Source: a virus. From it: a stretch of 64,000 nt of DNA. The notes beneath the pieces were generated by a model that was given only the letters and a program-made list of their open reading frames with translations, was not told the origin of the DNA and did no database searches. Positions 42,988-60,060 of the stretch are shown in pieces (position 1 is the stretch's first letter; each line of letters begins with the position of its first letter). The translations under genes and the position numbers were made by a program. The stretch is from IMG/VR virus record IMGVR_UViG_3300035670_000108, positions 1 through 64,000 of that record; one strand, written 5' to 3'.

Positions 42988-43014
42988 GTTGCCTCCTATC
43001 TAGGCAATTGAAAG

Positions 43015-43798: not shown

Positions 43799-43844
43799 GA
43801 TTTGCCCTCCTATTCAGGCAATGAAAGCTGCAAAGTCTTTGTAG

Positions 43845-44117: not shown

Positions 44118-44449
44118 GGCGTGACTCCGCGGTTCCACTGGTACCAGTCGACGGTCATGCTGTCCGGATTCTCCAGCTCCAGCATCACCTCCACCTTGAA
44201 CGCCATGCTGACCTTCACCTCTTCGGTGCCGTCCTCGTCCCAGGTCACGGCCATTGCCGAGGCGTAACCATTGACCAGCTCCACCTCCTGATCAGCGAAG
44301 TGGTAGTCGGTGTCGTCGACGGACAAACGGGCCAGCATGACCTGCTGATCCGGCATGTAGTTGTCGCAGAAGCCAATGGTGTCGATCACCAGGTCATCTA
44401 CCACGATGGTGTCAGCCCGGTTAATCAGGTCGAAAAGTTTAGCCAGCAT
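44114..44449 (-). CDS. hypothetical acidic protein
   Basis: AGGAGG SD below repeat 44480. Confidence 0.75.
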   Translation of the reverse strand: MLAKLFDLINRADTIVVDDLVIDTIGFCDNYMPDQQVMLARLSVDDTDYHFADQEVELVNGYASAMAVTWDEDGTEEVKVSMAFKVEVMLELENPDSMTVDWYQWNRGVTP

Positions 44450-44795
44450 GATTTGCCCTCCTATTCAGGCAATCGAAAGCTGCAAAGTCTTTGCAGCTGG
44501 GGTGTAATCGGGGGAATGACTGTCGTGCGAACTTCTGCACTTCCTCGGGCAGGTCGTCCCACTTCACTCGACGGCCCAGGTGCCTGCCCGGCGTCGCCGA
44601 GACGTGCATGCCGAATCCCTGCGGGTGGAAGGGGCGCTCGCTGGCGCCGATAGCCGACCAGGTGCCGTCGCGCTCGCGCTCCTCCTTGGCCCAGCGCGGC
44701 GGGATGATGGTGTAGCGGTCGAAGGTGCGACCGCCGTTGTCGTAGCAGCGCAGCGTCGTGCCGTAGCGCTGCAGGATGCCCATGCCCATGCTCAT
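44439..44795 (-). CDS. conserved phage hypothetical protein
   Basis: YDNGG.TFDRYT...PFHPQGFG.H...HLG.R....DLP..VQ; reads through a repeat. Confidence 0.75.
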   Translation of the reverse strand: MSMGMGILQRYGTTLRCYDNGGRTFDRYTIIPPRWAKEERERDGTWSAIGASERPFHPQGFGMHVSATPGRHLGRRVKWDDLPEEVQKFARQSFPRLHPSCKDFAAFDCLNRRANHAG

Positions 44796-45085
44796 GGCTG
44801 GCTCCCCGCCTCCTGCCGGTTCCACTGGTACCAGTCGACGCTCATGCTGGTCTCCTTCACGTCGTGCAGGCTGGCCTTCATGCTCCCGTTGCGCTCGAAG
44901 GCCGGGAGCATGAAGGTGTACCCGCTGGAGTACCCGCTGCGCCGCTCCAGTTCGGCCATGTAGGGGGCCTGCAAACGCAGGTACAGGTCGAGCAGGCCGA
45001 CCCGTTCCAGGGTGTCGTGGCTGAGGCTGCAGCGGAGCACCGCCGTCAAGGCGAAGTGCTCCTCCTTGGTGAGTTCAATTTGCAT
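44792..45085 (-). CDS. hypothetical protein
   Basis: GAGGAGG SD below repeat 45118. Confidence 0.7.
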   Translation of the reverse strand: MQIELTKEEHFALTAVLRCSLSHDTLERVGLLDLYLRLQAPYMAELERRSGYSSGYTFMLPAFERNGSMKASLHDVKETSMSVDWYQWNRQEAGSQP

Positions 45086-45144
45086 AGCTGTTGCCTCCTC
45101 TATTGGGCAATCGAAAGCTGCAAAGACTTTGCAGCTATTGAATT

Positions 45145-45579
45145 TCACAGGGTGAAAACCGGCTCCGGCCGAGCAAGGGTGGCCGTGCCCTCGACGTCGT
45201 CAGCCGCCGGCCTCACCCACATCTGGGTCTGGTCGTCCCAGATGAAGCCGGGGATCTCCATGCCGTCGGTCAACGGCTGATCCATGGGGTCGTCGTAGAT
45301 GGGCGATTCCGCGTCCCCGCCTTTCCACTCGGGCGGCAGCAGAGGCTCCACGCCCTCCTCCGCCGGGCCGGGGCAGACCGGATAGCCCAGGGCGTCGAGG
45401 CGTGGCGTGATCGAGGAGCCGGCGACCAGGTACTCGCAGCCGGTGCCCTTGTCGACGAACAGGTTGACGGCCGTCGAGGCGGAGGGATGCCGGTCGAAGC
45501 CGGCACCTACCTGCGCCACGAAAATGGCGCCAAGACCGATCATCAGGATCAAATCGCTCAGCTTGAGGGACGTCGTCAT
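45145..45579 (-). CDS. membrane-anchored or secreted protein (DUF6440-like)
   Basis: N-terminal TM; VD..TGCEYL......TPRLD..G motif; acidic tail. Confidence 0.65.
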   Translation of the reverse strand: MTTSLKLSDLILMIGLGAIFVAQVGAGFDRHPSASTAVNLFVDKGTGCEYLVAGSSITPRLDALGYPVCPGPAEEGVEPLLPPEWKGGDAESPIYDDPMDQPLTDGMEIPGFIWDDQTQMWVRPAADDVEGTATLARPEPVFTL

Positions 45580-46600
45580 TCTTCTGTGCTCCTAGTGCTG
45601 CGTGGGTGAGAGAAAATTTTGTCCTGGCTTGCACCGACAAGGGTGGCGAACCACCCGTCCAAGCTATTGATTTCAAAGGCGGTGTAAAAATTTGGTGTAA
45701 AAAGAGGTCACCAGAATGCCAACCGATATAGCTATAGCTCGGTGGGAATTATGCTGATCTCTTCGCCGGTGCAACCTGGCTCCAGATTCTCATTTGAGAA
45801 CTGGCCCCATTAACCTGCCCATTTTCTAGCCCCGATACACTCCTTGGCACTTCACCAGTCGAAACCACCCCATTCACCTGACTTGCACCTACCTGGCCGT
45901 ATACCTACAAACACACCAGAAAGCGGGAAATTTTACACAGCCCGTTGATCCATTAAGGTTTGAACCTGCAAAGTCTTTGCACCTTCCGCCCTGCAAAAAC
46001 TAGGCGTTCACTGGGCCTTTTTTACTGCATAAATCAAACAGTGGTTTTTTCCCGACGAACGGCCCGTTCTCCGTAAATCTTCAGTGAAGATACATAACTG
46101 TGGAGAGTTTTGAGTCTAATCACCAGTTACTACCTCCGCTTGCAAAAAATGGAAGCGCAGTTGCACCGCCTTTTCGGAATGGCCTATACCGCTTGCACCT
46201 CGACCGTGAGCGATTTTGTCCGTGCAAGCCCGTGGAACATTTTGAGGGCCGTCGAACGGGTGTTTTAGCGCCGAAACGGGCGCAATGGTCGATGACTATC
46301 TGGGGGAATAGTGTGAATTTTGCTGCGAGGGAGGTGCAGAAAATTACACCAGTCGAGAGGACGGGGTGGGTGGTCGAGCAGATCGTTAGCTTGCTCTGTA
46401 GTTCCGCCAAAACACCCCCCTATAAAATAAAATAAAACATGAAATTTTTCTCTCTATATAAGGAAAAACGGGGCTTGCGGCTAGCCACAGAAGAAAAGGG
46501 CCGTATAGGAAAGATTGGCCAACAGTGGGTTATGGAACATTCAAAAATCGAGGGTAAAACTCGACGGCCGTCTTACAGTGAGTTCGCCAGCCGTCGAGAC
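45580..46600. other. ~1-kb AT-richer non-coding region; candidate origin or control region
   Basis: No credible ORF; IHF consensus 45660-45672; GGTGTAAAAA twice; A-tracts; one palindrome copy. Confidence 0.5.
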
Positions 46601-46664
46601 CATTGCTCCCGCCACCCTTGTGCCCAGCACAGGGCGGTCGGAACAGGGCGCCGGGGATCCAGGC

Positions 46665-47042
46665 TCACGCCACCCTTGTGCCCTGCACAGGCCGGGCTCG
46701 ATCCGAACGGACGACGTCGCCCAATGCCGAGGCCCAGTTCAACATGGCTTGGCGCCGGCCTTGTGCGAGGACGTCGTCGCGCTCCAGACCAGGGAGGTAC
46801 TGCCCGGCCTTGCTCATGGCGACCGCACGGGCCATGACGATGGGCATTACGCCGCATCCGGCGGGCAGGATGACGAGGCGGGGCGTACCCTGTACGGGGG
46901 TAGCGGCACAGAGGCGCAGGGCGTCTTCCAGGGCCTTCCTGACGGCATAGCGGGGCTGCCCCTCGCTGAGTGCGGCCCCTTTTACGACGTGGTTGCGGTC
47001 GAGCAGCACGACGGCAAGGCGCAGGTGCAGGGTGTTTTGCAT
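46665..47042 (-). CDS. hypothetical protein
   Basis: AGGAGG SD below repeat 47073. Confidence 0.65.
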   Translation of the reverse strand: MQNTLHLRLAVVLLDRNHVVKGAALSEGQPRYAVRKALEDALRLCAATPVQGTPRLVILPAGCGVMPIVMARAVAMSKAGQYLPGLERDDVLAQGRRQAMLNWASALGDVVRSDRARPVQGTRVA

Positions 47043-47090
47043 GGTGTTGCCTCCTATTGCGGGCAGTGCAAGCTGCAAAGACTTTGCAGG

Positions 47091-47414
47091 TCAGGCGCTG
47101 AATTTGGTGATTTTGTGGACTTGGCTGACGGTGTACATGGGCAGGAGCTGGGTGCGGTCGGTATCGAACCGCACCTGGTCAATCGCCAGGAACCCGTGGC
47201 GCTGGTCAGTAGGCTGGACGGTGAACTCGACGTCGAAGCGCTGGCCACGGCGCAGGCCCCACAGGGTGCGGGCGTCGTGCTCAGTCAGCAGCACTTCCAC
47301 GGTGCGAGGGCGAACGGTGCCGCTGCGCACGTTGAGGGAGACCATGAAATATTCGCGCTGGGCAGCTGGCAGCGGGGTGGCTGCCAGGTCGATACGGTCG
47401 GCTTGCAGTTGCAT
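47091..47414 (-). CDS. hypothetical protein
   Basis: AGGAG SD; bracketed by repeats 47073 and 47433. Confidence 0.75.
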   Translation of the reverse strand: MQLQADRIDLAATPLPAAQREYFMVSLNVRSGTVRPRTVEVLLTEHDARTLWGLRRGQRFDVEFTVQPTDQRHGFLAIDQVRFDTDRTQLLPMYTVSQVHKITKFSA

Positions 47415-47454
47415 GGCGTGGCTCCTGTGGACCTGCAAAGACTTTGCAGGTCGG

Positions 47455-47706
47455 TTAGCGGACGGTGCGGACGTAGACGGGCACGGCCCAGCGCGTGGCG
47501 CCGATCTGCTGGAAGACGGTCTGGGTCTGGAGCCACGGGCGGGCGCAGAGCTGGGGGCGCTGGCGGCGGGCGGAATCCGGGCGATCGATCACGCGGGGAA
47601 TGTAGGGGGCGGATTCGACTTGGTGCTCTGCTGCCAGATGGTTGCAACGGTCGGCGCCATGACCACGGCGGCCAATGTGGGCGAACAGGCGATTGAGTGC
47701 GTGCAT
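47455..47706 (-). CDS. hypothetical basic protein
   Basis: AAGGAG SD; bracketed by repeats 47433 and 47732. Confidence 0.6.
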   Translation of the reverse strand: MHALNRLFAHIGRRGHGADRCNHLAAEHQVESAPYIPRVIDRPDSARRQRPQLCARPWLQTQTVFQQIGATRWAVPVYVRTVR

Positions 47707-47860
47707 GGTGAATCTCCTTTGCTGGATTGGGCTGCAAAGACTTTGCAGCTAGGGGGGCTGCAAAGACTTTGCAGCTAGGGGAAGCGCTTTGCCGTGCGGC
47801 CTGAAAAACAAGCGCGCACGGCAAAGCGCCCCACTAGGGGGCGCTTTTCTGGCGTGGGGT

Positions 47861-48613
47861 TTAGGCCGTTGCTTTTGCCAGTTCGGCCGCTTTCGCTTGC
47901 GATTCGCCCCGGCTTTTCGCATTGGGCTTGCCGGCGGCCGTGTTGCCGCGGCCTCTTTTCTCTGCCTTTTCCAGTGCAGCAGCAGTGCGCCGGTCAATTT
48001 CGGCCGCGATACGCTTATTTAATTCGTGCAGGTCTGCCGAACTGAAGGCTGCGAGTTGTTCCATAATGGCGCCGATAGAATCCACGCGCGGCGCGTTTTT
48101 ATCCGATACCGATACGGCAGGGCCTTTGCCAGTGGCGGCCGGTTTAGAGGCGGCCGGTTTAGCAGGGAAAAGGCGCGCATTGACTGCATTAAGCGCCTTT
48201 TGATCGTGGCCTAGCGCGGCCTTTACTTCGCCTTTCGTCGGCTTTTCCAGAATGATGACGTTTGCTTTACAGGCGCCACGATCAAGCGCGATATAGCAGA
48301 CGGCCGGCCGGGACTCTTCTGCAATGGCGCCCCAAATTTGGCGAACATGCGTGGCGATACTGTTAGCAATGCGTGCCCAGCTCTCGGCGTCAATTTGTTC
48401 TTTTTTGGTCAATTGTTCGGCCAACTGGACAAAAACGCTTTCCAGCGTAGTCCCGATGACCGGCACGGGCGAAGCGAAGAGGGCGCGCACCTGGTCGGCT
48501 AGTTTGCCGCGTGCTTTATCGGCTTGCGTGGCGGCCTGCACAATGGCGGCGGCACTGCCGTTTACTTTTTGAACAGCGGCGGCAACGGCTTTATTTTGGC
48601 TGGTGGTTTGCAT
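47861..48613 (-). CDS. first large gene of the sigma-54 transcript; Ala/Lys-rich hypothetical protein
   Basis: GGAG SD; distinctly lower-GC codon usage. Confidence 0.8.
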   Translation of the reverse strand: MQTTSQNKAVAAAVQKVNGSAAAIVQAATQADKARGKLADQVRALFASPVPVIGTTLESVFVQLAEQLTKKEQIDAESWARIANSIATHVRQIWGAIAEESRPAVCYIALDRGACKANVIILEKPTKGEVKAALGHDQKALNAVNARLFPAKPAASKPAATGKGPAVSVSDKNAPRVDSIGAIMEQLAAFSSADLHELNKRIAAEIDRRTAAALEKAEKRGRGNTAAGKPNAKSRGESQAKAAELAKATA

Positions 48614-48629
48614 GGTATGGACTCCGGTA

Positions 48630-48701
48630 TTAGATAAGGCGAAGAGCGCGAGCGATGAAATAGGCGGCCGGTATGCAAAGCGCGACGATTACTAGTTCCA
48701 T
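48630..48701 (-). CDS. 23-aa hydrophobic peptide (not in ORF track)
   Basis: GAAGGG SD; MELVIVALCIPAAYFIARALRLI. Confidence 0.45.
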   Translation of the reverse strand: MELVIVALCIPAAYFIARALRLI

Positions 48702-48800
48702 GCTGCGGCCCTTCTGTTAGGTTTGCCGGTCTGCAAAGTGTTTGCAGCTTCCGGTCTGGCTTGTGACCGGCTCATAAATGCACCCGGCACGCCCTACACA

Positions 48801-48817
48801 TAGCAGAAGGCGTGCCA
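48801..48817 (-). promoter_or_regulatory. sigma-54 (-24/-12) promoter of the early operon
   Basis: Minus strand TGGCACGCCTTCTGCTA versus consensus TGGCACG-N4-TTGCW. Confidence 0.8.
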
Positions 48818-48836
48818 ACTACGAAAATCCCTTATA

Positions 48837-48849
48837 AATCAATGACTTA
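48837..48849 (+). promoter_or_regulatory. IHF binding site
   Basis: AATCAATGACTTA = WATCAANNNNTTR, about -46 to -58 from the predicted start. Confidence 0.8.
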
Positions 48850-48873
48850 GCAGTTGGCACAGTTTTTGAGAAG

Positions 48874-48911
48874 TGACGTAAATGGTCACAAAGTGCTGAC
48901 AATTTGCGTCA
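48874..48911. promoter_or_regulatory. two TGAC-N7-GTCA dyads; candidate enhancer (UAS) sites
   Basis: TGACGTAAATGGTCA (48874-48888) and TGACAATTTGCGTCA (48897-48911). Confidence 0.5.
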
Positions 48912-48985
48912 CATGACCCACCCCCCACTTTTTGTGCCAACTTTCCCTGGTGCGGCCTACTCCCCTCCTCGCGGTTCCCAGAATT

Positions 48986-49014
48986 TTGCCAATCCCAACT
49001 GTACGGAGTACACT
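48986..49014 (+). promoter_or_regulatory. sigma-70 promoter of the rightward arm, overlapped by TGTACGGAGTACA
   Basis: TTGCCA-N17-TACACT. Confidence 0.7.
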
Positions 49015-49074
49015 GCCACAGGCCCCGCCATTGCCCTCATACACAGGCAATGACCCTTCCCCAGGAGATCGACC

Positions 49075-49557
49075 ATGACCGAGACCACCACCCCCGCCCC
49101 AACCCAGATTGGCGTGCAGCTGCGCTACCGCCTCCCCGGCGCCTCCGCCGACATTGACCTGCTGTTCGTCTCGACCGCTGACAAGGCTGAGCATGTCCGT
49201 GCCCTGCTGGCAGGCGAGCTGGAGCAGGAGCCGGTAGTCGATGCCGCGCCCCTGGCCCCCGCCGCCATGGCCCTGATCAATGCCCTCCACCGCATCCAGG
49301 CCCAGCTCGACGAGGACGAGGCCCGCATGGAGGACGGCGGCATCCACAACCCGATCGCCGGTACCAACATCGCCAGCTCGTGCTTCATCGCCGACCTCCG
49401 CGCCCTGGGCAGCTCGCCCAAGCAGGTGGCCCTGCTGCTGGCCTGCAACACCGGCTTCTACAACACCGACAACAACCCGGAGATCTTCTTCAGCCGTCGG
49501 CGCTTCGCCCCGGCGCCGAACTTCTACGACCTGGCACTCGAGGGGGTCAGTGCATGA
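49075..49557 (+). CDS. hypothetical protein
   Basis: AGGAG SD; codon bias. Confidence 0.75.
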   Translation: MTETTTPAPTQIGVQLRYRLPGASADIDLLFVSTADKAEHVRALLAGELEQEPVVDAAPLAPAAMALINALHRIQAQLDEDEARMEDGGIHNPIAGTNIASSCFIADLRALGSSPKQVALLLACNTGFYNTDNNPEIFFSRRRFAPAPNFYDLALEGVSA

Positions 49558-50591
49558 GCACCAACCTATGGCTGCGCAAGGCCCTCCCCTACCGCCTCAC
49601 CAACGACGTACCGCTGTTCATGGCCCGCGGTCTGCTGGGCGAGTCCAGTTGGGAGGTTCACCAGGAGCTGAACAAGGCGCTCAACCAGCGGCCGGCGCGG
49701 GCGCCCGCGAGCAACGAGCTGAGCACCTATGGCTTCGTCGACCCTTTCCCGCCTCGCGCCATCACCCTGGCTGAGGTCAACGAGGAGCCGACCCTGGAAG
49801 AGACCATCGACGCGCCACCCCTTGCCCAGCTGGTGCGCCCCATCAACAACGGCGAGTTCCTGGTGGTCTGCGCCGAGTACCAGTACCGCGACCTGAAGAC
49901 CCAGGTGATCAAGCGCGAGCTGAAGCTCAAGACCGACAAGATCGAGTTCGAGCAGCAGCGCAAGGTGTACAAGAAAGAGCGCGACCAGCTGAAGGACGAG
50001 ATCGTGCAGCAGCTGTTGCCACGGGCCTTTGTGCTGGCGCGGCGCACCCCGGCGATCATCGACACCCAGCGCGGGGTGATCTGGGTCGGCTCTGGCACGG
50101 CCAAGGCGGCGGAGGATCTGCTCAGCACGCTCAGGGAGTGCCTGGGCAGCCTGCCGATCCGCCCGTACCAGGTGAAGATCGCGCCGTCGGCCTCGTTCAC
50201 TGACTGGGTCCGCGAGGGGAAATGCCCGCAGGACTTCCACCTGCTCGACCTGGCGCTGTTCGAGGACACCAGCGAGGACGGTGGCAAGGTCGGAATGATC
50301 CGCCAGGACCTCACCGGCGAGGCGACCCAGATGGTGGTGGCCGAGGGCAAGATCGCCACGAAGATCGCCATCGCCTACCAGGACAAGGTCAGCTTCGTGG
50401 TCAACGACAAGCTGCAGTTCACCTCCATCCGCTTCGAGGATCTGCTGGCGGATCAGGCCGCCCAGGAGGGTGGCGATGATGCCCACGGCCAGCTGGAGGC
50501 GTCGGCGCTGATCACCGGCAGGACGCTGCGGGATATGCTCGAAGAACTGTCGCTGAACCTCGGCGGCGAAGAAATTCCACAGGGGATCTGA
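49554..50591 (+). CDS. rdgC: recombination-associated protein RdgC
   Basis: W.....YRL, YGFV.P, KKERDQLKDEI...LLPRAF, AEDLLS.LR..LGSLP. Confidence 0.93.
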   Translation: MSTNLWLRKALPYRLTNDVPLFMARGLLGESSWEVHQELNKALNQRPARAPASNELSTYGFVDPFPPRAITLAEVNEEPTLEETIDAPPLAQLVRPINNGEFLVVCAEYQYRDLKTQVIKRELKLKTDKIEFEQQRKVYKKERDQLKDEIVQQLLPRAFVLARRTPAIIDTQRGVIWVGSGTAKAAEDLLSTLRECLGSLPIRPYQVKIAPSASFTDWVREGKCPQDFHLLDLALFEDTSEDGGKVGMIRQDLTGEATQMVVAEGKIATKIAIAYQDKVSFVVNDKLQFTSIRFEDLLADQAAQEGGDDAHGQLEASALITGRTLRDMLEELSLNLGGEEIPQGI

Positions 50592-50592
50592 G

Positions 50593-51063
50593 ATGAACGG
50601 ATATGAGCTGACGCTGGGAATCCTGGGGATTATCGTGATCGGCGTGGTGCTGGGGCTGTTCTGGTGGGGCGTGAATCGCTGGGCAGCTGGAGGGGAGGAA
50701 GCGCGCGAGCGTGAGGATCGCCAGGAGGGGGTCAAGCGCGCTGCCCAGGCAGAGATGGCACGCTCGCGTGGGCCGAAGGTGGTGGAGGGCAAGGTCAGGC
50801 GGGAGCTGTCGCCTATGTACAGGGGCGAGGCACCGGGGAGGTCTGGGTTGTCGGTAGGGGAGGGGGTTCCCCTCCGCCCGGAAAGGGGCCAGGTCTACGA
50901 CCCACTGCACCCCTTGAACCCGATCAGCCCGATTTCACCGTTCAACGTGGGCGATCGCGGGTCTGCAGATTGCGCTCCGAAGCACGACGGCGGGGAGGGT
51001 TACGGCAGTAGCTCGCCGTCCTGCAGCGATAGCAGCAGCTCGTCTCCGAGCAGTAGCGACTGA
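50593..51063 (+). CDS. membrane protein with Ser-rich tail
   Basis: N-terminal TM; PLHPLNPISP; poly-Ser C-terminus. Confidence 0.7.
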   Translation: MNGYELTLGILGIIVIGVVLGLFWWGVNRWAAGGEEAREREDRQEGVKRAAQAEMARSRGPKVVEGKVRRELSPMYRGEAPGRSGLSVGEGVPLRPERGQVYDPLHPLNPISPISPFNVGDRGSADCAPKHDGGEGYGSSSPSCSDSSSSSPSSSD

Positions 51064-51242
51064 CCGATAGGGGTCTTTTCAGGCCCCTATTCGCTGTTTT
51101 AGACCGAAATAGGTCATTTTTCATGCAAAAGACAAGCAAAATCGGTGAAATTGCCTCAAAAACAGGGCAAATCGCCTCGTTTTCGTGCGATTTTACTGCG
51201 TTTTGCTCGATATTTTCTTCGCTCACGGAGGGCTTCTGAGCC

Positions 51243-51932
51243 ATGTCAAACCTTAACTTCGAGCAGAAACAAGCGTGCCGGACCAACCCGCTGGCCGCCT
51301 ACCTCGCCAAACGCATCAACTGGATGATCCTGCTGGTCACCGTGCTCAACCTGTGCACGATCGGCCTCGCAGCGCTGGCGGCGGTATACGGGGCCGGTGG
51401 CACCTCGTCTGAAATCGTCCACGCTCTGCACCTGTGGGCCTTCGGCCTGCTGGCGATCAACCTTCTCAGCGGCCTGGTGCTGATGGCCGAGCTGTTCTGG
51501 ATGCGCCAGCATCAGATCTCGCCTGAGAGCTTCTGCAGTCTGGGAGAGCATCAGCCTCCCGCTGAGGCGGTGGAGGAGTCCACAGACGGATCGTTCCTGG
51601 CCAAGGGTATCAACCACGACTGGCGCGAGTTCGTGCAGGGCGCCCGCCGCTTCGCCAGCTACGCCGGCCGCAACCATGGCGCCGGCCGCACAGCGATGGA
51701 GAAGGAATACAACCGCTCGATGGAGATCCAGGCCAAGGCCCTGGCAGACCTGGTCGAAGCCCTCTCCTTGTCCATCGAGGAGAAACAGCAACTGGGCTTC
51801 CACGGCAGCCAGGTGGGGTTCCGCCAGAAGGAGATGACCACCCGCACGCTGCAGCGGGTCACCCGCACCGCCCAGGAGGCTATCCGGGCTCTGCACGGAA
51901 AAGGCCGGCGCAAGCCCCTTGCCAAATCCTAA
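51243..51932 (+). CDS. two-TM membrane protein
   Basis: Two hydrophobic stretches. Confidence 0.7.
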   Translation: MSNLNFEQKQACRTNPLAAYLAKRINWMILLVTVLNLCTIGLAALAAVYGAGGTSSEIVHALHLWAFGLLAINLLSGLVLMAELFWMRQHQISPESFCSLGEHQPPAEAVEESTDGSFLAKGINHDWREFVQGARRFASYAGRNHGAGRTAMEKEYNRSMEIQAKALADLVEALSLSIEEKQQLGFHGSQVGFRQKEMTTRTLQRVTRTAQEAIRALHGKGRRKPLAKS

Positions 51933-51946
51933 TTGCCCGCTATGAT
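51919..51946 (+). promoter_or_regulatory. sigma-70 promoter of the sRNA
   Basis: TTGCCA-N16-TATGAT. Confidence 0.7.
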
Positions 51947-51952
51947 GGCAAC

Positions 51953-52055
51953 TGACCCCGCCAAGGAAGGCGACGATTTGGCGAGATCGAAGGGTCATGG
52001 AGGGAGCGGAGGCGCCAGGATGGCAGAACGGGGTGGCTAAGCCACCCCGTTTTTT
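51953..52055 (+). ncRNA. putative RsmY/RsmZ/CsrB-like small RNA
   Basis: Own promoter and terminator; five GGA motifs, including CGCC-AAGGAA-GGCG and GCC-AGGAT-GGC hairpins. Confidence 0.65.
52027..52055 (+). terminator. intrinsic terminator
   Basis: AACGGGGTGGC-TAA-GCCACCCCGTT-TTTT. Confidence 0.88.
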
Positions 52056-52116
52056 ATGGACAACTGGTTGCCCAATTGCCATGATAAGTGGGCAATTACC
52101 CACATACGAGGCAACC

Positions 52117-52416
52117 ATGTCCGAGAAACGTAAGCCAGACCTCACCCTGGTGATGCAGCCTGCCAACGGTACGAAGGTCCGCTACGAGATCTTCGACGGC
52201 TCGCAATTCATCGACCGCATGCAGAAGGTGCCCTTCTTCCACGCGGAGAACCCCAACGTCCAGCTGTCCCCGGTCGACCTGGAGAATCACCACTTCGTGC
52301 GCGTGCGCGTGGACGGCGTATGGCTGCCGAAGGGTACCCGGGCGATGTTCCCCATGTGGCGGGTGGCCACACTGTCGGCCCAGCACATGCAGTCCATGCT
52401 CGGGGGTGACGCATGA
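52117..52416 (+). CDS. hypothetical protein
   Basis: GAGG SD before ATG 52117. Confidence 0.7.
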   Translation: MSEKRKPDLTLVMQPANGTKVRYEIFDGSQFIDRMQKVPFFHAENPNVQLSPVDLENHHFVRVRVDGVWLPKGTRAMFPMWRVATLSAQHMQSMLGGDA

Positions 52417-52775
52417 AAGCCCTGCTCGCCTGGTTCGTCATCGGCCTGACCTTCAACACCCGTATGGTCTACATGATGATGTCGGAGATCTCCAAGCGCC
52501 GGGCCTTCAACGGCACCAACCCACTTCTGGTCATGTTCGACGGTTTCCTCCTGACCCTGGCCGGCGTGCTACTGTTCGCCCTGCCGGTGGTGGCGATCGT
52601 GTTCTTCCCCGTTACCAGCCTCTGGCTGGTGGTGATGAACCGCCGCGAGTGGCACCAGATTCGCAACCTGACACGCGAAGGGCGGGTTCAATGGGCATCT
52701 GGGACAATCGCGGAGCCTGCCACCGCCGGCCCCGAACCTGAGCCTACCGTGGAGGAACCGCAGCATGGGCAGTAA
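52413..52775 (+). CDS. membrane protein
   Basis: Hydrophobic segments; ATGA coupling. Confidence 0.7.
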   Translation: MKALLAWFVIGLTFNTRMVYMMMSEISKRRAFNGTNPLLVMFDGFLLTLAGVLLFALPVVAIVFFPVTSLWLVVMNRREWHQIRNLTREGRVQWASGTIAEPATAGPEPEPTVEEPQHGQ

Positions 52776-53382
52776 GGGTGGTTTCTCCCTGGAAGAGCGT
52801 CTGCTGCAGAACGCCGTAGACACCGTGGTGAAGAACCGGGACGAGTACGAAGTTCCTGTCCTGATCCACCTGGTGCAGGCGGTGGTAGAGCGCAAGGATC
52901 TGGCCCCAGGCCTGTACCGCATCCTCGCCGCCGCGCTGACCACCGACCAGCTCAAGGAAATGGGGCTGCACGTCGGCGGCATGGCCGGTACCGGCGACGA
53001 CGTCATGAACTACCTGACCATGCCGAAGCTGCACCGCACCTTGTTGCGTGGCATCCAGCAGATGCAGGAAAAGCTCATGCCGGGCGGTTTCCTGATGACC
53101 AGCAAGGACGTCGACCACACCGACGCCACCCGCATGCTCCGCGACTGCACCACCCAGCTGGAGAAGGTCTTGCGCCTGACCAAGTCGGCCCGCGCCAACG
53201 CCGAGGTGCTCCGCCTGAAGGAAGCCCTGGGTGACGGTCTGAAGGCGATCGCCGCCGAGATGGGCAAGGAGCATAGCGCGCGGGCCTACGAGATCATGAC
53301 CGCCGCGATCAACGCCAGCCTGACCAAGACCCAAGTGGCGCTGGACATCGAGATGAAGGACGCCGAGGAGCTGACGGGTTGA
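52765..53382 (+). CDS. probable terminase small subunit
   Basis: Helical protein directly upstream of and coupled to TerL; positional inference. Confidence 0.5.
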   Translation: MGSKGGFSLEERLLQNAVDTVVKNRDEYEVPVLIHLVQAVVERKDLAPGLYRILAAALTTDQLKEMGLHVGGMAGTGDDVMNYLTMPKLHRTLLRGIQQMQEKLMPGGFLMTSKDVDHTDATRMLRDCTTQLEKVLRLTKSARANAEVLRLKEALGDGLKAIAAEMGKEHSARAYEIMTAAINASLTKTQVALDIEMKDAEELTG

Positions 53383-55232
53383 GCAACAACAAGCTCCTCG
53401 AGGATTTCAAGGGTGGCGCCGTCGGCGCCAACCTGATGGCACAGCTGCACTCCTCGGTGTACGGCGCCACCGACTTCAGCCAGCTCTCCACATGGCTGGA
53501 GCAGAACACCCGCCACCCCTTGCGCCCCAAGCAGAACTGGACGTTTGCCGAGCACGAGTACCAGATCGACATCCTCAACTCGACCTGGCACGAGGAGTTC
53601 TACCAGAAGTGCTCCCAGGTAGGCGCCTCCGAGCTGTTCGTGCGCATGAAGCTGGCGATGCTGGGTATCAGCGAGGCCATCACGATCATCTACGTGCTGC
53701 CGACCCGCACCTTCGCCCTGCGCTTCGCCAAGGGCCGGGTTGACCCGGTCATCGAGAGCAGTGACGCGCTCAAGGCCATGCTCAACAAGGACGTCAACTC
53801 GTCCGAGATGAAGCAGTTCGGCCACAGCTTCCTGTACATCACCGGCTCCTTCGGCCAGTCGTCCGCGATCTCGATCCCGGCGCAGGCGCTGTTCTGGGAC
53901 GAGGTCGACTTCTGCGACCAGCAGAACCTGACCACCTTCCGCAGCCGGATGGGCCACTCCAAGGAAGACGACCTCTGGTTCGTCCGCGGCTTCAGCACCC
54001 CCACGGTCTTCGACTACGGCATCAACGCCTACTACAAGAAGGGCTCCCAGGCCTTCTACGGCGTGTGGTGCAACCAATGCCGCGACTTCGTCGAGGTGCA
54101 GTTCATGCGAGACGTGGTCGTGCCGGGCTTCGACCGCGACATGAAGGAGTGGGGCAAGGATTGCCTGGACGACCCGGCCCTGGACATCGACGCCACCTTC
54201 TTCCGCTGCAACTGCTGCCAGCAGCAGATCCCCTGGAAGAACTTCCTGGACCCGGCCAAACGCCGCTGGGTGCATACCTTCCCCGAGCGCAAGATCCGCT
54301 CGCGCCAGATCAGCCCCTTCGACGTGCCGGAGATCAACAACCCGGCGCGGACCCTGCGGCACGTCGCCGACTACGAGGTCACGGCCGACTGGGTGAACTT
54401 CAAGGTAGGCCTGCCCTTCGAGGACGCCAGCTCCAGCTTCCTGGTGGAGACGGCAGAGTGGGGCAAGGGATTCCAGATCTCGCCACCCTTGTCCCACCGG
54501 GAGCTGGATCAGCTGGTGAAGGAGAAGGGCATGCAGGACAACCTGCCGGCCTTCCTGGAGTGGCTCTTCGAGCAGCCTCAGATCGCCAGCTCCTGCACCA
54601 TCGGCATGGACGTGGGCAAGCTCTCCTGGATCACGGTCCAGGCCGTCGGAGGGGTCGCCCGCCACCTGGTCTTCGCCGAACGCGCCCAGGCTGCCAGCGG
54701 TAACCTGCTGTTCCGCTACCTGTATATCTTCCACACCTTCGGCTGCGTGTTAGGGGTGGTCGACGCTGGCCCAGACTTCACGCTGAGTCAGAGCCTGGTC
54801 CGTGCCCTGCCGGGCCGTATCTACGCCTGCTACTACGCTACGGCCAAGGACAACCAGCTGCAGCGTTTGAAACTCGACCAGGAGCAGGGGATTGTCACTG
54901 CATTGCGGACCCGCACCCTGGATATGCTGGTGCGCGCGTTCAATAGCGGTAAGATTGCGCTGGCCAAGCTGGCCGAAGAGGCGGCGATCAAGTCACACCT
55001 GAAGGCCCTGAAGCGTGTCACCGAGATGGAAGACGAGGGCGAAAAGGGCAACATGGAGAAGGCTAAGTGGGTGTCCACCGGTGACGACCACTTCGGCCAC
55101 TCCCTGGTTTACTCGAGTATCGCCGCCGACCTGGTGCACAGCATGGACGGCCTGGAGGCGCTCGACCGCGCCGGTGGGGCCCACAAGCTCGGTGTGCTGC
55201 CGAATGTTGGCAGGTTGAAGATCCACCGCTAG
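53379..55232 (+). CDS. terL: terminase large subunit (GpA-type)
   Basis: KCSQVGASE, YVLPT, FWDEVD, FSTPT, CxxC pairs, GMDVG nuclease, DDHFGH. Confidence 0.92.
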   Translation: MSNNKLLEDFKGGAVGANLMAQLHSSVYGATDFSQLSTWLEQNTRHPLRPKQNWTFAEHEYQIDILNSTWHEEFYQKCSQVGASELFVRMKLAMLGISEAITIIYVLPTRTFALRFAKGRVDPVIESSDALKAMLNKDVNSSEMKQFGHSFLYITGSFGQSSAISIPAQALFWDEVDFCDQQNLTTFRSRMGHSKEDDLWFVRGFSTPTVFDYGINAYYKKGSQAFYGVWCNQCRDFVEVQFMRDVVVPGFDRDMKEWGKDCLDDPALDIDATFFRCNCCQQQIPWKNFLDPAKRRWVHTFPERKIRSRQISPFDVPEINNPARTLRHVADYEVTADWVNFKVGLPFEDASSSFLVETAEWGKGFQISPPLSHRELDQLVKEKGMQDNLPAFLEWLFEQPQIASSCTIGMDVGKLSWITVQAVGGVARHLVFAERAQAASGNLLFRYLYIFHTFGCVLGVVDAGPDFTLSQSLVRALPGRIYACYYATAKDNQLQRLKLDQEQGIVTALRTRTLDMLVRAFNSGKIALAKLAEEAAIKSHLKALKRVTEMEDEGEKGNMEKAKWVSTGDDHFGHSLVYSSIAADLVHSMDGLEALDRAGGAHKLGVLPNVGRLKIHR

Positions 55233-55262
55233 AATCCGCTGCATCCATAGGGAGATGGTCAA

Positions 55263-56741
55263 TTGGCCGCACAGAACGGAAAGAGGGGTAGCTCAGGCGC
55301 CAGCAGCAAGCTGGCACCGCAGCCTATTCTCCCTCGCAAGCTGGCCAACAAGGCTAAATCGGTAGGCGCTGCCAGCGGTACCGACAAAGGCCAGGACATC
55401 TCCAACAACCGCACGGTCTACATCAACCAGTCGGTCAAGGCGCTCCGCGACCAGAACCGGCCGGTGGCCGCCCTCCGGGAGCTGGCCCGGGTAGACGGTA
55501 CGGTTGGCAGCGCGATCTTCAACTTCGTGGAGATCGCCCACACCTCGTTCAAGGTCTGGGCCTTCGACGCTGCCACGCACCAGCCGCTGCCAGAGGCCAC
55601 CATGGTGGCCCGCACCATCCTCTCGCGCTTCGACACCGTCTACGACTACACCCTGGGCTTCGCCGACAAACCGACCATCCGCATGGCGCTGGAGCAGATG
55701 CTCCTGGAAACCGTGCTGGGTAACGGCTTCGGCTGCGAGCTGGTGCTGGACAAGTCGCTGTTGCCTGACCGCCTGCAGGTCAGCAACTACGACAGCCTGA
55801 CCTGGGTCAGCCAGGGCGACGGCCTGCGCTACCCGAAGCAGCAGGGCAACGACGGCGAGGTGGAGCTGAACATCCCCAACTTCTTCGTGGGTGAGCTGCA
55901 CCTGTCGCCGGCCTTCGCCTACGCGACGCCCATGCTGGAGCCGGCGATCAACGACTCGTTCTTCTTCCGCGAGTTCATCGAGGACATGCGCCGCACGGTT
56001 CGCCGCGCCGCCAACCCCCGCCTTGCCGCCAAGCTGATCACCGAGAAGATCATCGAAGCCTGCCCGCTCGACGTGAAGATGAACCCCACCAAGATGCGTG
56101 ACTGGCTCGACGCTCGCCGCGCCGAGGTGGAAGCGGTGCTGTCCGACCTGGAGCCGGAAGATGCCCTGACCTTCTGGGACTCGGTGGAGATCGACGCGAT
56201 CAAGATGGCCGGCGAGAAGCAGGACTTCGTGCCGCTGCTCAACGCCATCAGCGGCCTGCAGGCGACCAACCTGAAGGCCCCGCCCAGTATCCTGGGCCTG
56301 CGCCTGGAGGGCAGCCAGTCGCTGTCCAACACAGAATCCATGGTCTTCCTGAAGGTCGCGGCCTCCATCCGCAAGCCGGTGGAAGACGTCATGAGCCGCG
56401 CCTTGACCCTCGGCGTGCGCCTGTACGGCCAGAACGCCTACGTGGTCTTCGAGTTCGATCCCATCGACCTCCGCCCCGAGAACGAGGTGGAGGCTTTCCG
56501 CGTGATGCGCCAGAGCCGTATACTGGAGCAACTGTCCCTGGGTTTGATCAGCGACGACGAGGCATTCATCCAATTGGGCCTCGAGTATTCCCCGGCTGGC
56601 TATAAACCGTTATCCGGTACTATGTTTTACAAGGCCGATGCCTCCGCCGAGCAGGCGAGCAAGGCATCACCCAACAGCGACCCGCAAGGGAAGGCGCTCC
56701 AGTCTGACCAGCCGAAGAAGGCTGGCGGGGCGAGCCAGTGA
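55263..56741 (+). CDS. portal protein
   Basis: 492 aa, between TerL and protease. Confidence 0.8.
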   Translation: MAAQNGKRGSSGASSKLAPQPILPRKLANKAKSVGAASGTDKGQDISNNRTVYINQSVKALRDQNRPVAALRELARVDGTVGSAIFNFVEIAHTSFKVWAFDAATHQPLPEATMVARTILSRFDTVYDYTLGFADKPTIRMALEQMLLETVLGNGFGCELVLDKSLLPDRLQVSNYDSLTWVSQGDGLRYPKQQGNDGEVELNIPNFFVGELHLSPAFAYATPMLEPAINDSFFFREFIEDMRRTVRRAANPRLAAKLITEKIIEACPLDVKMNPTKMRDWLDARRAEVEAVLSDLEPEDALTFWDSVEIDAIKMAGEKQDFVPLLNAISGLQATNLKAPPSILGLRLEGSQSLSNTESMVFLKVAASIRKPVEDVMSRALTLGVRLYGQNAYVVFEFDPIDLRPENEVEAFRVMRQSRILEQLSLGLISDDEAFIQLGLEYSPAGYKPLSGTMFYKADASAEQASKASPNSDPQGKALQSDQPKKAGGASQ

Positions 56742-56751
56742 AGGAGCACAC

Positions 56752-58308
56752 ATGAGCCGCCAGAGCCATAGCCAAGGGTCTACCCCGCTGTACTGGTACA
56801 GCGCGAACGTCCAGTCGTTCAACGACTGGATGGAGTCGCGCAAGCACATTATGGCGATGAACCCTCTGCAGCTGGCCGCTGAGAAGGCCAAGCTGCTGTC
56901 CGGTAACCAGGTGCAGATCCGCGGCTCTATCGAAGGCGACTACAAGCCGGCCTTCGGCGACGGCAGCCAAGACTACATGATGACCCGCTACAAGAACCTG
57001 GCGCTGATCAACATCAGCGGCACCCTTGTGGCGTCCGACAACTGGTACAACCGCTACTACGGCATGATCTCCTACGCCGAGATCCGCCGCAGCATCCTGA
57101 TGGCCCTGGAAGACAAGGCTGTCACCGGCATCCTGGCGACCATGAACACCCCCGGCGGTAACGCCAGCGGCGCCGACGCGATGGCCACCTTCTTCAAGAA
57201 GACCGACCAGTCCAAGCCGTTCTACGTTTTCGCCGAGACCGAGATGTGCTCGGGCGGCTACTACCTGGGTGCCCCTGCGCGCGAGGTGTACGCCCAGCGC
57301 GCCTCCTTGATCGGCTCCATCGGCGTGATCATGGTGCACATGGACATCCTCAACATGTACGAGGAGATGGGCATCAAGCCCACCGTCTTCCGTGCTGGCG
57401 AGTTCAAGGCCCTGGGTAGCCCGTATGAGCACCTGGACAAGAAGGCGCAGGGCGTCATCCAGTCCACCCTGGGCAACTACTTCGACATGTTCAACGACCA
57501 CGTCGTGGACTGCCGGAGCTACAGCAACGTGGCTGATTTCCGCGCTACTGCGGGCGAAGGCCGCGTGTTTATGGCTGAAGAAGCCAAGGAAGTCGGCCTG
57601 GTTGACCAGGTCGCTGAGATGGAGGAGGCCCTGGACGAGGTGTCCCAGAAGTCCAACCGGATCTCCGGGAAGTCCAGTCAATTCGCCGTTACATCGAACC
57701 TGAAAGGGACCAAGCTCATGTCTTATGCACAGCTCCTGGCGTTGGCCGCCTCTGGCGTCCAGCTGACCGCTGAACAGCAAGCCATCCTCGACGCCGGTGA
57801 TCCGGATGCCCCTGCGGTGGAAGCCGAGGCGGGTGACAACGTGGTCGAAGATCCGACCAAGCCGGCAGTGGAAGCCACCGCCGAGCCGGTCGTTGAAGAA
57901 CCAGCGCCTGCAGCCCCGGCTGTAGTCGCCTCCGCTGACCTGAACAAGGTCATCGAACTGTCTACCGAGCTGGGCCAGGCCAAGGCCACCGTCACCAAGC
58001 TGGAAGGTGACCTGTCCAAGCTCCAGACCGAACTCGATGCCTCCAAGGCGACCATGTCGTCCTTGCAAGCCATCGTGTGCCAGGCCATCTCTCACCGTCA
58101 GGTGGCGCTGGGTTACCAGCCGTCCCCTGCCGAGGATATGACGGCCAGTCAGCAGGTCGAGCTGTTCAACAAGCTCGACGCTGTCTTCAAAGAGCGGATC
58201 AAGGCGGGGCAAGTCTCGAAGCCGACGTCAGCACAGCCTAGCGCTTCTGCTACTCTGTCGCCGACTCCGGTAATGGAAGCTGCCCGCAACCTGACCGGCA
58301 AACTCTGA
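56752..58308 (+). CDS. S49 head maturation protease with scaffold-like C-terminus
   Basis: NTPGG, CSGGYYL, GSIGV, GEFKA, GLVD; coiled-coil tail. Confidence 0.9.
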   Translation: MSRQSHSQGSTPLYWYSANVQSFNDWMESRKHIMAMNPLQLAAEKAKLLSGNQVQIRGSIEGDYKPAFGDGSQDYMMTRYKNLALINISGTLVASDNWYNRYYGMISYAEIRRSILMALEDKAVTGILATMNTPGGNASGADAMATFFKKTDQSKPFYVFAETEMCSGGYYLGAPAREVYAQRASLIGSIGVIMVHMDILNMYEEMGIKPTVFRAGEFKALGSPYEHLDKKAQGVIQSTLGNYFDMFNDHVVDCRSYSNVADFRATAGEGRVFMAEEAKEVGLVDQVAEMEEALDEVSQKSNRISGKSSQFAVTSNLKGTKLMSYAQLLALAASGVQLTAEQQAILDAGDPDAPAVEAEAGDNVVEDPTKPAVEATAEPVVEEPAPAAPAVVASADLNKVIELSTELGQAKATVTKLEGDLSKLQTELDASKATMSSLQAIVCQAISHRQVALGYQPSPAEDMTASQQVELFNKLDAVFKERIKAGQVSKPTSAQPSASATLSPTPVMEAARNLTGKL

Positions 58309-58325
58309 TAGGGAGATAGAGACTC

Positions 58326-58817
58326 ATGCCCGCCTACAAACGTGGTTTGAAAATCGGTTCCGCCTGGAACTACCGTGAAGCTGCCCTCGGCTCCTCTGGC
58401 AACAAGGGTACCTTCACCGACAAGGACAAAGGCAAGCCGCTGAAACTGGCTGCGGACTCCACCTATGATGTCTGCGCCGCCGGTGACGAGATCGAGGAGA
58501 TCTTCGAGGCCCTGGCCGCCCAACAGTCCACCGTGAACAACGGCTACCAGATCGGCACCATCCGCGATGACGGCCAGTTCCTCGGCATCATCGACGACAT
58601 CACCGAGGCCCCGGCCATCGGCAAGTATGTCGTATCCGGTACCCAGGCTGCCCTTGGCACCCTGAACGGCCCGGCCGGTAAGGAAACCACCGGTTATGCC
58701 AAGGTTCGCTGCATTGCCAACGCCAACCGCGCGGCTGCACTGAACAAATGGCGTATCGTGTCGATCCTGTCCGGTAGCGGCGTCGGCGCAGTCGTCCTCT
58801 GTGAGCGTGTGCGCTAA
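58326..58817 (+). CDS. head decoration protein
   Basis: Small beta-rich protein immediately before the capsid gene. Confidence 0.6.
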   Translation: MPAYKRGLKIGSAWNYREAALGSSGNKGTFTDKDKGKPLKLAADSTYDVCAAGDEIEEIFEALAAQQSTVNNGYQIGTIRDDGQFLGIIDDITEAPAIGKYVVSGTQAALGTLNGPAGKETTGYAKVRCIANANRAAALNKWRIVSILSGSGVGAVVLCERVR

Positions 58818-58860
58818 GGCGCACTCCCTCACTCACCGGAAACTCTAGGAGTAGAGAGCA

Positions 58861-60060
58861 ATGGATCTGAACCAAGCCAAAGTAAAAATCCGCGATCAGG
58901 CCGGCGCGCTGATGGAGGTCGATCTCGACCTCATGATGTACGACGCTGCCGCTACCCGCGGCCTGTCCATGAGTCAGCACCTGACCCACCTGTACGGTTC
59001 GCAAACCGACGAGGCCAAGTTCGGCAGCGTGATCTCTCAGATCATGCAGAACAACGGCATTCTGATGGGCTACGACCACGGTACCGGTCTGCGTGCGCCG
59101 ACCATGTCCGAGGTGCTGAACCATGGCGTGTCCATGGGTGCCATCACCAACACCGACGGTAACGATCGTTCCGCCGCCGGCCGCATCCTGTTCCCGGAGA
59201 TCATCCTGCGGACCATCGAGGCGGAGCTGCGCGAGTCGAAGGACGACTACTTCCGCAACTACGAGAACATGGTGGCGATGACCCAGGTCATCAACGGCCC
59301 GCGCTTCGAGCAGCCGTCCATCAACGTCAAGTACCCGGAAGAGTCGGCCAGCAACCGCATCAGCGAACTGGCTGAACCGGACGCGATGGTCAGCATCACC
59401 ACCAGCTCCGTGACCCGTAAGGTGCCGACCAAGTCCATCGGTCTGATGATCTCGGACGAGGCGCTGGCCACCACCACCCTTGACCTGGTGAACATCATCA
59501 TGACGGCTCAGGCCCGTGGTGAGCGTTACCGCATGGTGCAAGAGCAGCTGGGCGCCATCCTGAACGGCGATCCGGACTGGGGCGAAGCTGGCCTGAGCGG
59601 CTACACTGCCCAGTCCCTGGACTCGGCGATCACCACCGCCGGCACCATCACCCACAAGGCCTGGATCAAGTTCCTGCGCAAGGACTTCCGTCGCAAGTCG
59701 CTGAACTACGCGATCACCGACCTGGATACCGCCCTCGCGCTGGAAACCCGTTCGGGCAAACCGACCCGTGACACCGTCTACTTCGGCGAAGGCTCGAACT
59801 TCGCCGTCGACATGACCGTGGACAACCTGAACGCCAAGCAAGTGCCGGTGTTCCTGGTCGACACCGTGGTCAGCGGCGCCAACACCGTGGTCGCCCTGGA
59901 TACCCGCTACGGCATCCGCCGCGTGATCAACGTGAGCGCGAACTACAGCGCGGTCCAGGAGTTCGTCCTGCGTAAGGCCAAGGCCTTCCGTATCGACTAC
60001 GCCGAGATGGCCCATTCGCTGTACCCGACCGCCTTTGAGAAGATGGCACTGACCGTCTAA
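58861..60060 (+). CDS. major capsid protein
   Basis: 399 aa, strong codon bias, followed by a terminator; position. Confidence 0.85.
   Translation: MDLNQAKVKIRDQAGALMEVDLDLMMYDAAATRGLSMSQHLTHLYGSQTDEAKFGSVISQIMQNNGILMGYDHGTGLRAPTMSEVLNHGVSMGAITNTDGNDRSAAGRILFPEIILRTIEAELRESKDDYFRNYENMVAMTQVINGPRFEQPSINVKYPEESASNRISELAEPDAMVSITTSSVTRKVPTKSIGLMISDEALATTTLDLVNIIMTAQARGERYRMVQEQLGAILNGDPDWGEAGLSGYTAQSLDSAITTAGTITHKAWIKFLRKDFRRKSLNYAITDLDTALALETRSGKPTRDTVYFGEGSNFAVDMTVDNLNAKQVPVFLVDTVVSGANTVVALDTRYGIRRVINVSANYSAVQEFVLRKAKAFRIDYAEMAHSLYPTAFEKMALTV

Follow-up and report, generated by a model that had tools for sequence, protein, structure and literature searches.

Does a bacterial virus encode its own decoy for CsrA and RsmA, the translational repressors of bacterial hosts? 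This question is raised by a short locus on a 64,000-nt stretch of viral DNA (hereafter the window), which corresponds to bases 1-64000 of the complete 89,047-bp virus record IMGVR_UViG_3300035670_000108 (GC content about 63%, with direct terminal repeats), and for which an earlier note proposed a phage-encoded small RNA (sRNA) similar to RsmY and CsrB. The CsrA/RsmA proteins are master translational switches for motility, biofilm and secondary metabolism, and for the acute versus chronic lifestyle of Pseudomonas, and recognize the element A(N)GGA; to our knowledge, every decoy described so far is encoded on a chromosome and responds to the Gac-type signalling of the host. The CsrA/RsmA motif CAAGGAUG is quoted in 10.1101/2025.07.22.666180, and the recognition of GGA by CsrA/RsmA is given in PMC8545117. 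The predicted sRNA of the window is about 100-105 nt in length (51952..52055, + strand), its 3' end being the T-run of a terminator and its start being placed about 6-9 nt past the -10 box of a promoter. Judged from the sequence and its comparison with relatives, the locus is probably a real, separately transcribed accessory sRNA gene, located in a slot that relatives use for stable RNAs. That this sRNA serves as an RsmA/CsrA decoy is an arguable possibility, falling just short of probable, and represents the best single mechanism because two hairpins (H1 and H2), kept as far as the Pseudomonas phage Lana, show A(N)GGA, and because no base-pairing target was found in the phage.

Promoter, RNA body and terminator of the locus

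The sRNA locus occupies the 184-nt gap 51933-52116. The promoter described in the earlier note, herein referred to as P1, is present as TTGCCA-16 nt-TATGAT (51919..51946, + strand; -35 hexamer 51919-51924, -10 hexamer 51941-51946), is sigma-70-like with a score of 10/12, and is the joint best among 5 promoter-like sites in the region 45000-60000 (shuffle mean 2.9). The strong terminator, previously located at 52027-52055, was also recovered (52025..52055, + strand): in the minimum-energy fold it consists of a 13-pair stem with the loop TAA and six T (52050-52055), the core of the stem being formed by pairing of GGGGTGGC (52030-52037) with GCCACCCC (52041-52048). It was not listed by a simple terminator scan, which, we think, missed it by a greedy stem running into the T-run.

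Between these two signals, the RNA carries the five GGA motifs claimed (51965, 51999, 52003, 52008 and 52018; 56 nt from the first to the last), and 4/5 are in A(N)GGA context. When folded from 51952, the RNA gives a dG of -48.5 kcal/mol (z -4.1; 0/200 shuffles as stable), and its 5' domain (51953..51997, + strand) forms a predicted three-way junction, in which the closing helix of TGACCC (51953-51958) and GGGTCA (51992-51997) holds hairpin H1, CGCC-AAGGAA-GGCG (51959-51972, + strand; a 4-pair stem with GGA in the AAGGAA hexaloop), and in the minimum-energy fold a second hairpin, CGATTT-GGCG-AGATCG (51974-51989, + strand). The 5' domain is followed by the purine-rich linker TGGAGGGAGCGGAGGC (51998..52013, + strand) with three GGA (51999, 52003 and 52008) and then by hairpin H2, GCC-AGGAT-GGC (52014..52024, + strand), which is the most conserved piece of the RNA and has a GGA with an unpaired probability of 1.0. 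The GGAs of H1 and H2 are 53 nt apart. With respect to the exposure of multiple A(N)GGA, the prediction places two GGAs in the loops of stems of four pairs and the remaining three in the linker, the exposure of four of the five depending on the assumed 5' end.

Ranked among the windows of the genome, the density of five GGA within the 83-nt body is in the top 0.75-0.94%, and for 58-nt windows it is in the top 0.12-0.20%. Under a rule that defines a GGA-loop hairpin as A(N)GGA in a loop of up to 8 nt, closed by at least 3 or at least 4 pairs, a mechanical search recovers both H1 and H2, and the presence of at least two such hairpins per 85 nt is found in 0.5% of + strand genome windows (stems of at least 4) or 1.3% (stems of at least 3). 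As to other classes of stable RNA, ARAGORN detected 0 tRNA or tmRNA genes in the window, and the Rfam tRNA model gave no match in 51850-52150. An open frame (51997-52416) runs through part of the sRNA, and its extension 51997-52116 was said in the earlier note to hide the sRNA; eight homologues start with MSEKR at ATG 52117, which is thus the true start. The gene itself (52117..52416, + strand; 99 aa, MSEKRKPD...) is the first of the late/packaging operon, belongs to no Pfam or PHROG family and sets the downstream boundary of the RNA.

Conservation in related and cultured phages

Searches with the large terminase (TerL) identified four lineages that are about 70% identical, namely the window, L007, the group L004/L005/L008 (hereafter the L004 group) and L009. 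The unit of promoter, short RNA and terminator is kept in 4/4 of them, with a promoter spacer of 16 nt in each, and follows one plan (end of the homologous upstream gene, promoter, RNA of 65-110 nt, terminator, second promoter, MSEKR gene). No small ORF is conserved across the window, L007, L004 and L009. The earlier description of a self-contained non-coding unit is upheld. The promoters are TTGACA/TATCCT in L004 (10/12), TTGCAA/GATAAT in L009 (9/12) and TTGCAA/CATACT in L007 (8/12 by eye, unflagged by the scan), and the terminators are in the same position with unrelated sequences. The RNA bodies diverge strongly, the number of GGA before the terminator being 5 in the window, 6 in L007, 3 in the L004 group and 0 in L009. 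The fold of L007 reproduces the layout of the window with other stems (GGU-AAUGGAUG-ACC and GCC-GAAA-GGC), and contains a counterpart of the linker, GAGGGACGGGACGGGC, and a counterpart of H2, GCC-AGGAC-GGC; in both RNAs, a three-way junction whose first loop contains GGA is followed by a linker rich in GGA, by GCC-AGGAY-GGC and by the terminator.

A near relative was found in a wastewater RNA library (run X15); within the RNA, it departs from the window at a single base of the terminator loop (A>T at 52039). This relative differs at 16 positions in 51569-51774 and at only 2 in 51775-52142 (terminator loop and late leader), and such an abrupt change of divergence within the upstream gene would fit either selection or a recombination boundary. 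Closer relatives are known as proteins of 99%, 89% and 80% identity. Four lineages are too few for a covariation statistic; RNAalifold on the window and L007 suffered from a poor automatic alignment and gave an implausible consensus, and in a MAFFT alignment of six sequences the late promoter alone aligned well. The 451-nt region gave no match among the INPHARED phages, and of the relative searches by the two flanking proteins, one yielded a partial locus (L003) and the other none. Both the alignment search with the 99-aa protein in viral_contigs and the late-leader pattern search returned known loci only. In genome_contigs, the TerL profile gave 131 pattern matches with no relative among them, and therefore neither a prophage nor a named host was obtained. 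A DNA pattern combining H2 with the foot of the terminator was also tried and rejected: two of its 3 stretches in viral_contigs were chance matches in coding sequence, and all of its 49 stretches in genome_contigs were chance matches. At larger distance, the upstream region of L012/L013 (TerL 43%) differs and is not alignable, and the Vibrio phages (TerL about 29%) have another gene order with no comparable slot. In L012 (940-1110), we observed a 19-nt box, CTGAAGG(C/T)AATTTGTAAG, that occurs twice, 140 nt apart, and brackets a short terminator-ended unit.

Among cultured phages, those with the closest TerL (about 32%) are the Pseudomonas phages Lana, UAntarctica and PMBT3, of which the gene order matches that of the window (slot, three small genes, TerL, portal, protease). 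Their slots, chosen for inspection by position alone, hold 1-3 tRNA genes. In Lana, a tRNA-Gln is flanked by GGA-rich RNA with a terminator at its end (9 GGA in 391 nt), and the RNA after the tRNA gives a full-length match to RsmY (22.1 bits; E 0.0028 for 551 nt against all 4227 families); this is the record's sole RsmY match, with an E-value of 1e-4 per genome. When the window RNA was compared with the whole of Lana by BLAST, the best match fell on H2 (CGCC-AGGAT-GGCG, 18/19 nt, E 0.0045), and an H1-like hairpin, GGGCC-AAGGAU-GGCCC, lies before the tRNA; apart from these two short hairpins showing A(N)GGA, no piece of the RNA is shared by the window and Lana. Against INPHARED, the Lana RNA matched Lana itself and, over 31 nt of the terminator, a Sinorhizobium phage. 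The slot of PMBT3 holds three tRNAs followed by about 210 nt (216 nt) with 6 GGA and two GGA-loop hairpins. For the conservation of GGA loops in relatives, on which the earlier note had made its proposal depend, the outcome is divided: at least two GGA-loop hairpins are present in 4/7 lineages, and the loops are absent in 2/7 (L009 and UAntarctica).

The GGA-rich, terminator-ended RNAs beside the tRNA genes are unannotated in both phages (Lana, L073, MK473373.2, 2100-2490; PMBT3, L074, MG596799.1, 2190-2405). The portions available of the genome papers of PMBT3 and Lana (PMC8421299 and PMC7368026) mention no small RNA, and the promoter and terminator list of PMBT3 (Online Resource 3) may bear on its slot. 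After the terminator, a conserved leader of about 130 nt (L073 2480-2628, L074 2405-2543, L075 2750-2881; AAAACCCCGCTAATCTGCG ... GGGCAAGAAGCCCTAGCCG), shared by Lana, PMBT3 and UAntarctica before the first packaging gene, may be a late promoter or a regulatory RNA. Elsewhere in UAntarctica (L080, MZ605292.1, 1975-2101; record 79474-79600, + strand), a sub-threshold RsmY-like match of 21 bits was noted on the opposite strand within a gap of 680 nt that separates minus-strand genes, with 3 GGAs and a bidirectional terminator; it looks weak, much of the score coming from the terminator. An unannotated minus-strand ORF seems to begin near position 2451 of the same locus.

Possible RsmA/CsrA binding and other explanations

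The sRNA is not a member of the RsmY, RsmZ or CsrB family, because every copy is below the Rfam gathering score; the model search suggested in the earlier note thus turned out negative, with 0 matches at gathering thresholds in the whole window and all copies sub-threshold. Below the thresholds, the sole match of the RsmZ model in the window genome is the sRNA locus (17.8 bits, E 0.0027 per genome), and the RsmY model gave no match in G000 at E<=10. In the model alignments, the RsmY consensus places its central hairpin on H2, while H1 falls on an AGGAA hairpin of RsmZ. A control set of 12 further viral records (about 431 kb in total, the L004 and L007 records included) gave a maximum of 13.1 bits for RsmY and no RsmZ match at E<=1. 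A search of 151 genomes belonging to the same class as an Arenimonas metagenome-assembled genome found no true RsmY above the cut-off. Of the proposed identity as an Rsm decoy, what has stood is the retention of two GGA hairpins as far as Lana together with the sub-threshold RsmY match there, and what has not is a gathering score.

In several respects the unit resembles RsmX/Y/Z and CsrB/CsrC (Rfam clan CL00106): it is predicted as an independent terminated unit within the range of this functional class (about 100-350 nt), it shares with them the length of about 100-120 nt and the 3' intrinsic terminator, it carries several GGA, part in hairpin loops (AAGGAA, AGGAU) and part single-stranded, and the matches to RsmZ (window) and RsmY (Lana) are full-length though sub-threshold. 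It differs from them in being encoded by a virulent-type phage rather than a chromosome, in having just 5 GGA, in a sequence that is not kept in all relatives, in scores below every gathering threshold, and in a promoter with a phage-wide dyad and no GacA box. If the RNA is a decoy, its own sigma-70-type promoter and intrinsic terminator would produce an autonomous RNA of about 100 nt from the stable-RNA slot; the loops of H1 and H2, plus the three linker GGAs, would be presented to CsrA-family dimers (RsmA/RsmE in Pseudomonas-like hosts), and the bound repressor dimers would leave a smaller free pool during infection, as is the case with RsmY and RsmZ. Here we infer transcription, the start site, the host, the binding of RsmA and its effect alike.

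The decoy would be under the control of the phage rather than of Gac. The palindrome TGTAAG-N6-CTTACA is the GacA-dependent upstream box of the Pseudomonas rsmX/Y/Z genes; no such box was found upstream of P1, the window contains 6 matches with 3 mismatches versus 7.6 expected, and the nearest of these (3 mismatches) is at 52129, downstream of the sRNA. The -10 box of P1 is surrounded by a dyad, TTGCC-N9-GGCAA (51933..51951, no strand assigned), and that of the late promoter, P2 (TGGACA-17 nt-CATGAT, 52057..52085, + strand; score 9/12, extended -10 with TG present), sits within a dyad of the same type, TTGCC-N10-GGCAA (52076-52095). The dyad at 51933-51951 is a probable operator shared with P2, by which the sRNA would be switched together with the late genes; from the absence of a Gac box and the shared phage dyad, it follows that the decoy, if real, would be phage-controlled and probably late. 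The cultured relatives infect Pseudomonas, for which the presence of RsmA/RsmE and RsmX/Y/Z is well established (PMC8545117). In a wider and more tentative reading, in which our confidence is limited, the 80-90-kb virulent siphophages of Pseudomonas-type hosts (the window, L007, the L004 group, Lana and PMBT3) might carry a viral mimic of RsmY/RsmZ that is switched on late and titrates RsmA/RsmE, its two RsmA-docking hairpins having been kept while TerL diverged to 32% identity.

A number of results weigh against a decoy. The sub-threshold scores are far from the gathering thresholds (44 for RsmZ in the window, 57 for RsmY in Lana), L004, L009 and PMBT3 gave no match to any Csr/Rsm model, and the match in L007 (CsrC, 12.4 bits) covers the terminator only. 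The match of the window is not independent of the initial observation because the models reward a terminator plus AGGA hairpins, and the E-values are not to be taken literally because 22/151 gammaproteobacterial genomes gave sub-threshold RsmY matches at a nominal E<=0.001. As for the motifs, mononucleotide shuffles of the RNA predict 3.6 GGA with p(>=5) = 0.27, and since shuffles of the RNA itself match the count, the excess of GGA comes from the G+A-rich composition and not from word order. The layout proposed in the earlier note, which is exact when the RNA is folded from 51952, is replaced by a rod when it is folded from 51947 (-50.3), leaving 4/5 GGAs with an unpaired probability of 0.39-0.48 and only the GGA at 52018 at 1.0; the three-way junction is therefore conditional on the start site. 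Among the relatives, the RNA of the L004 group is simpler, its 3 GGA forming no hairpin that satisfies the GGA-loop rule, L009 has 0 GGA in 74 nt, and the slot of UAntarctica contains tRNAs and a terminator with no RNA body and 0 GGA. Taken over its full length, the Lana RNA has a fold no more stable than that of its shuffles (z -0.02), and in its best fold H2 is absent as a local hairpin. CsrA was found in 1/1 gammaproteobacterial and 0/2 betaproteobacterial genomes searched, and betaproteobacteria, which are common in wastewater, may be devoid of CsrA. The locus is covered in three metatranscriptomes by contigs that run from the upstream gene across the terminator; such contigs carry no information on ends, strand or level, and may derive from DNA, and a single raw-read run gave 0 reads at the locus. 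Taken as a whole, the evidence is one of sequence resemblance, and two related lineages are without the motifs.

Of the explanations other than a decoy, the strongest is a real phage sRNA with another task, be it a base-pairing regulator of host mRNAs (perhaps Hfq-dependent) or a ligand of some other phage or host protein to which the conserved hairpins are specific, the GGAs being a purine by-product. The conservation of the unit in 4/4 lineages while its sequence drifts, the maintenance of the unit with 0 GGA in L009 and the GGA count accounted for by composition all speak for such a task, as does the six-U terminator, which is the usual Hfq-binding 3' end. Nevertheless, we found no complementarity longer than 11 nt to the phage genome on either strand and no outlier among 198 translation-initiation regions (best z -2.9), and the pieces kept to Lana are GGA-loop hairpins, not a single-stranded seed; this explanation is, in our estimate, rather unlikely. 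With no conserved ORF, and no antisense or ribosome-binding-site target found in the phage genome, protein binding would be the simplest use of the conserved hairpins. An encoded small protein is hardly credible: a frame of 35 aa is open at 51933-52040 (33 aa from ATG 51942), but there is no Shine-Dalgarno sequence ahead of it, the ATG is inside the -10 box, the stop is in the terminator loop, and L007, L004 and L009 have no matching frame.

The two remaining explanations concern the position of the locus between operons. The locus might be no separate gene but the end of the rightward early operon (from RdgC to the 229-aa gene), for which 52025-52055 would be the terminator, P1 a fortuitous or weak promoter and the GGA stretch a 3' untranslated region. 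In line with this, the -35 hexamer is in coding sequence, the TTGCAA found there in three relatives being part of a Cys-Lys codon pair, the upstream ORF is readable into the RNA in L007 and L009, the promoter of L007 is the poor and unflagged one, and the RNA-library contigs cross from the upstream gene over the terminator. Against it, a promoter passing the scan is present at the right distance in 3/4 lineages, always with the 16-nt spacer; the promoter of the L004 group has moved about 50 nt downstream of a relic TTGCAA and is still directly 5' of the RNA; the -10 box of P1 is in the same dyad as that of the late promoter; and the slot of Lana, PMBT3 and UAntarctica is occupied by genes for tRNA, a stable RNA and not an untranslated tail. 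We consider an operon tail improbable, and an RNA derived from a 3' end could act as a decoy all the same. Alternatively, the RNA might be a cis-acting late leader of the type of lambda pR'-6S RNA-tR', in which transcription from P1 halts until a phage factor permits read-through to the packaging genes. The location directly 5' of the late/packaging operon, the arrangement of strong promoter, short RNA and strong terminator as in lambda, and the library contigs spanning the terminator are what this would lead one to see. On the other hand, no Q-type antiterminator was found in searches with PF06530 and PF03589 (controls working) and with PF06323 (of which the control matched nowhere), the upstream gene encodes a membrane-type protein without a family, the extended -10 promoter P2 after the terminator in all lineages means that the late genes need no read-through, and the late leader is kept both in L009, where another sequence takes the place of the RNA body, and in UAntarctica, which has no such body. 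Unlike the lambda system, with which it shares the order of promoter, short RNA and terminator directly 5' of late genes, the locus thus has no detected Q gene, a second conserved promoter and an RNA body dispensable in relatives, and a late leader is very improbable.

An accessory sRNA gene in a stable-RNA slot agrees with what is known of phage morons and tRNA slots, in that it has its own promoter and terminator between two operons, with variable content and constant flanks; it differs in that the cargo is neither a protein gene nor a tRNA. Likewise, short non-coding RNAs arise from phage intergenic regions in the case of the phiKZ RNAs detected by Grad-seq and of the prophage sRNA sponges, including one of about 100 nt that lies between two genes of phiKZ (PMC8545117), but those RNAs base-pair where their action is known, or have no assigned partner. 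No phage or prophage sRNA that binds CsrA/RsmA is described in the accessible parts of PMC8545117, 10.1101/2025.07.22.666180, PMC13501541 and PMC10884466. In agreement with the earlier note, which knew of no described phage Rsm decoy, none was found in the full-text literature as far as available, and a CsrA-interactome preprint that mentions prophages (bioRxiv 10.64898/2026.08.12.744399) may bear on priority. A phage-borne decoy, if true, would mean that viruses directly attack the CsrA/RsmA regulatory layer, and it would offer a compact natural tool to switch the Rsm regulon. The counterparts in Lana and PMBT3, which are cultured and have known Pseudomonas hosts, make the question accessible to bench work. 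Should the decoy reading fail, the locus would still represent a conserved and undescribed phage sRNA gene at the early-late junction.

Gene order and the recurrent dyad

Upstream of the gap, the + strand carries in order an RdgC-like gene (49380-50591), a 156-aa gene and a 229-aa gene (51243..51932), and downstream of it are three small genes, TerL (53379-55232), portal and the S49 head protease. Because of this gene content on both sides, the gap 51933-52116 is the junction between the rightward early/replication arm and the packaging/late operon. The phage is of the virulent type with a genome of 89 kb, and neither a tyrosine integrase nor a phage-encoded CsrA was found in the virus record. 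The 229-aa protein, of which the gene overlaps P1 with its 3' end (stop 51930-51932), belongs to no Pfam or PHROG family and is predicted to have two N-terminal membrane helices. Its basic C-terminal tails are unrelated among the lineages, and in L007 (1498-2382) and L009 (3-188) the frame of this upstream gene continues without a stop across the sRNA promoter and reaches about 25-50 nt into the RNA.

P2 together with the leader of the packaging operon covers 52057..52116 (+ strand), within which TTGCCA and GCAAT are invariant in the six-sequence alignment; P2 is unchanged in L004. The dyad TTGCC-N9/10-GGCAA has 11 matches in the genome, 10 of which lie between 37463 and 52076 (37463, 40680, 42989, 43802, 44453, 45091, 49031, 51151, 51933 and 52076; span 37463-52095, 15 kb). 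Two copies surround -10 boxes, one in the sRNA promoter and one in the late promoter, the latter copy being retained in L007 and L009; in the position of the P1 dyad, L007 has ATGCC-N10-GGCAT. Six copies are directly 5' of minus-strand start codons with the AGGAG Shine-Dalgarno sequence within the spacer, each of these being preceded by a 21-nt palindrome of the AGCTGCAAAG.CTTTGCAGCT type. This recurrent dyad may be an operator for a single phage regulator, or an RNA hairpin, and the loop-exposed GGAs of its copies resemble RsmA sites. One further copy (51151) lies ahead of the 229-aa gene, and a second terminator-like hairpin of 11 pairs (51066-51091) lies 3' of the 156-aa gene; from these two elements, the rightward early arm seems to be divided into short units.

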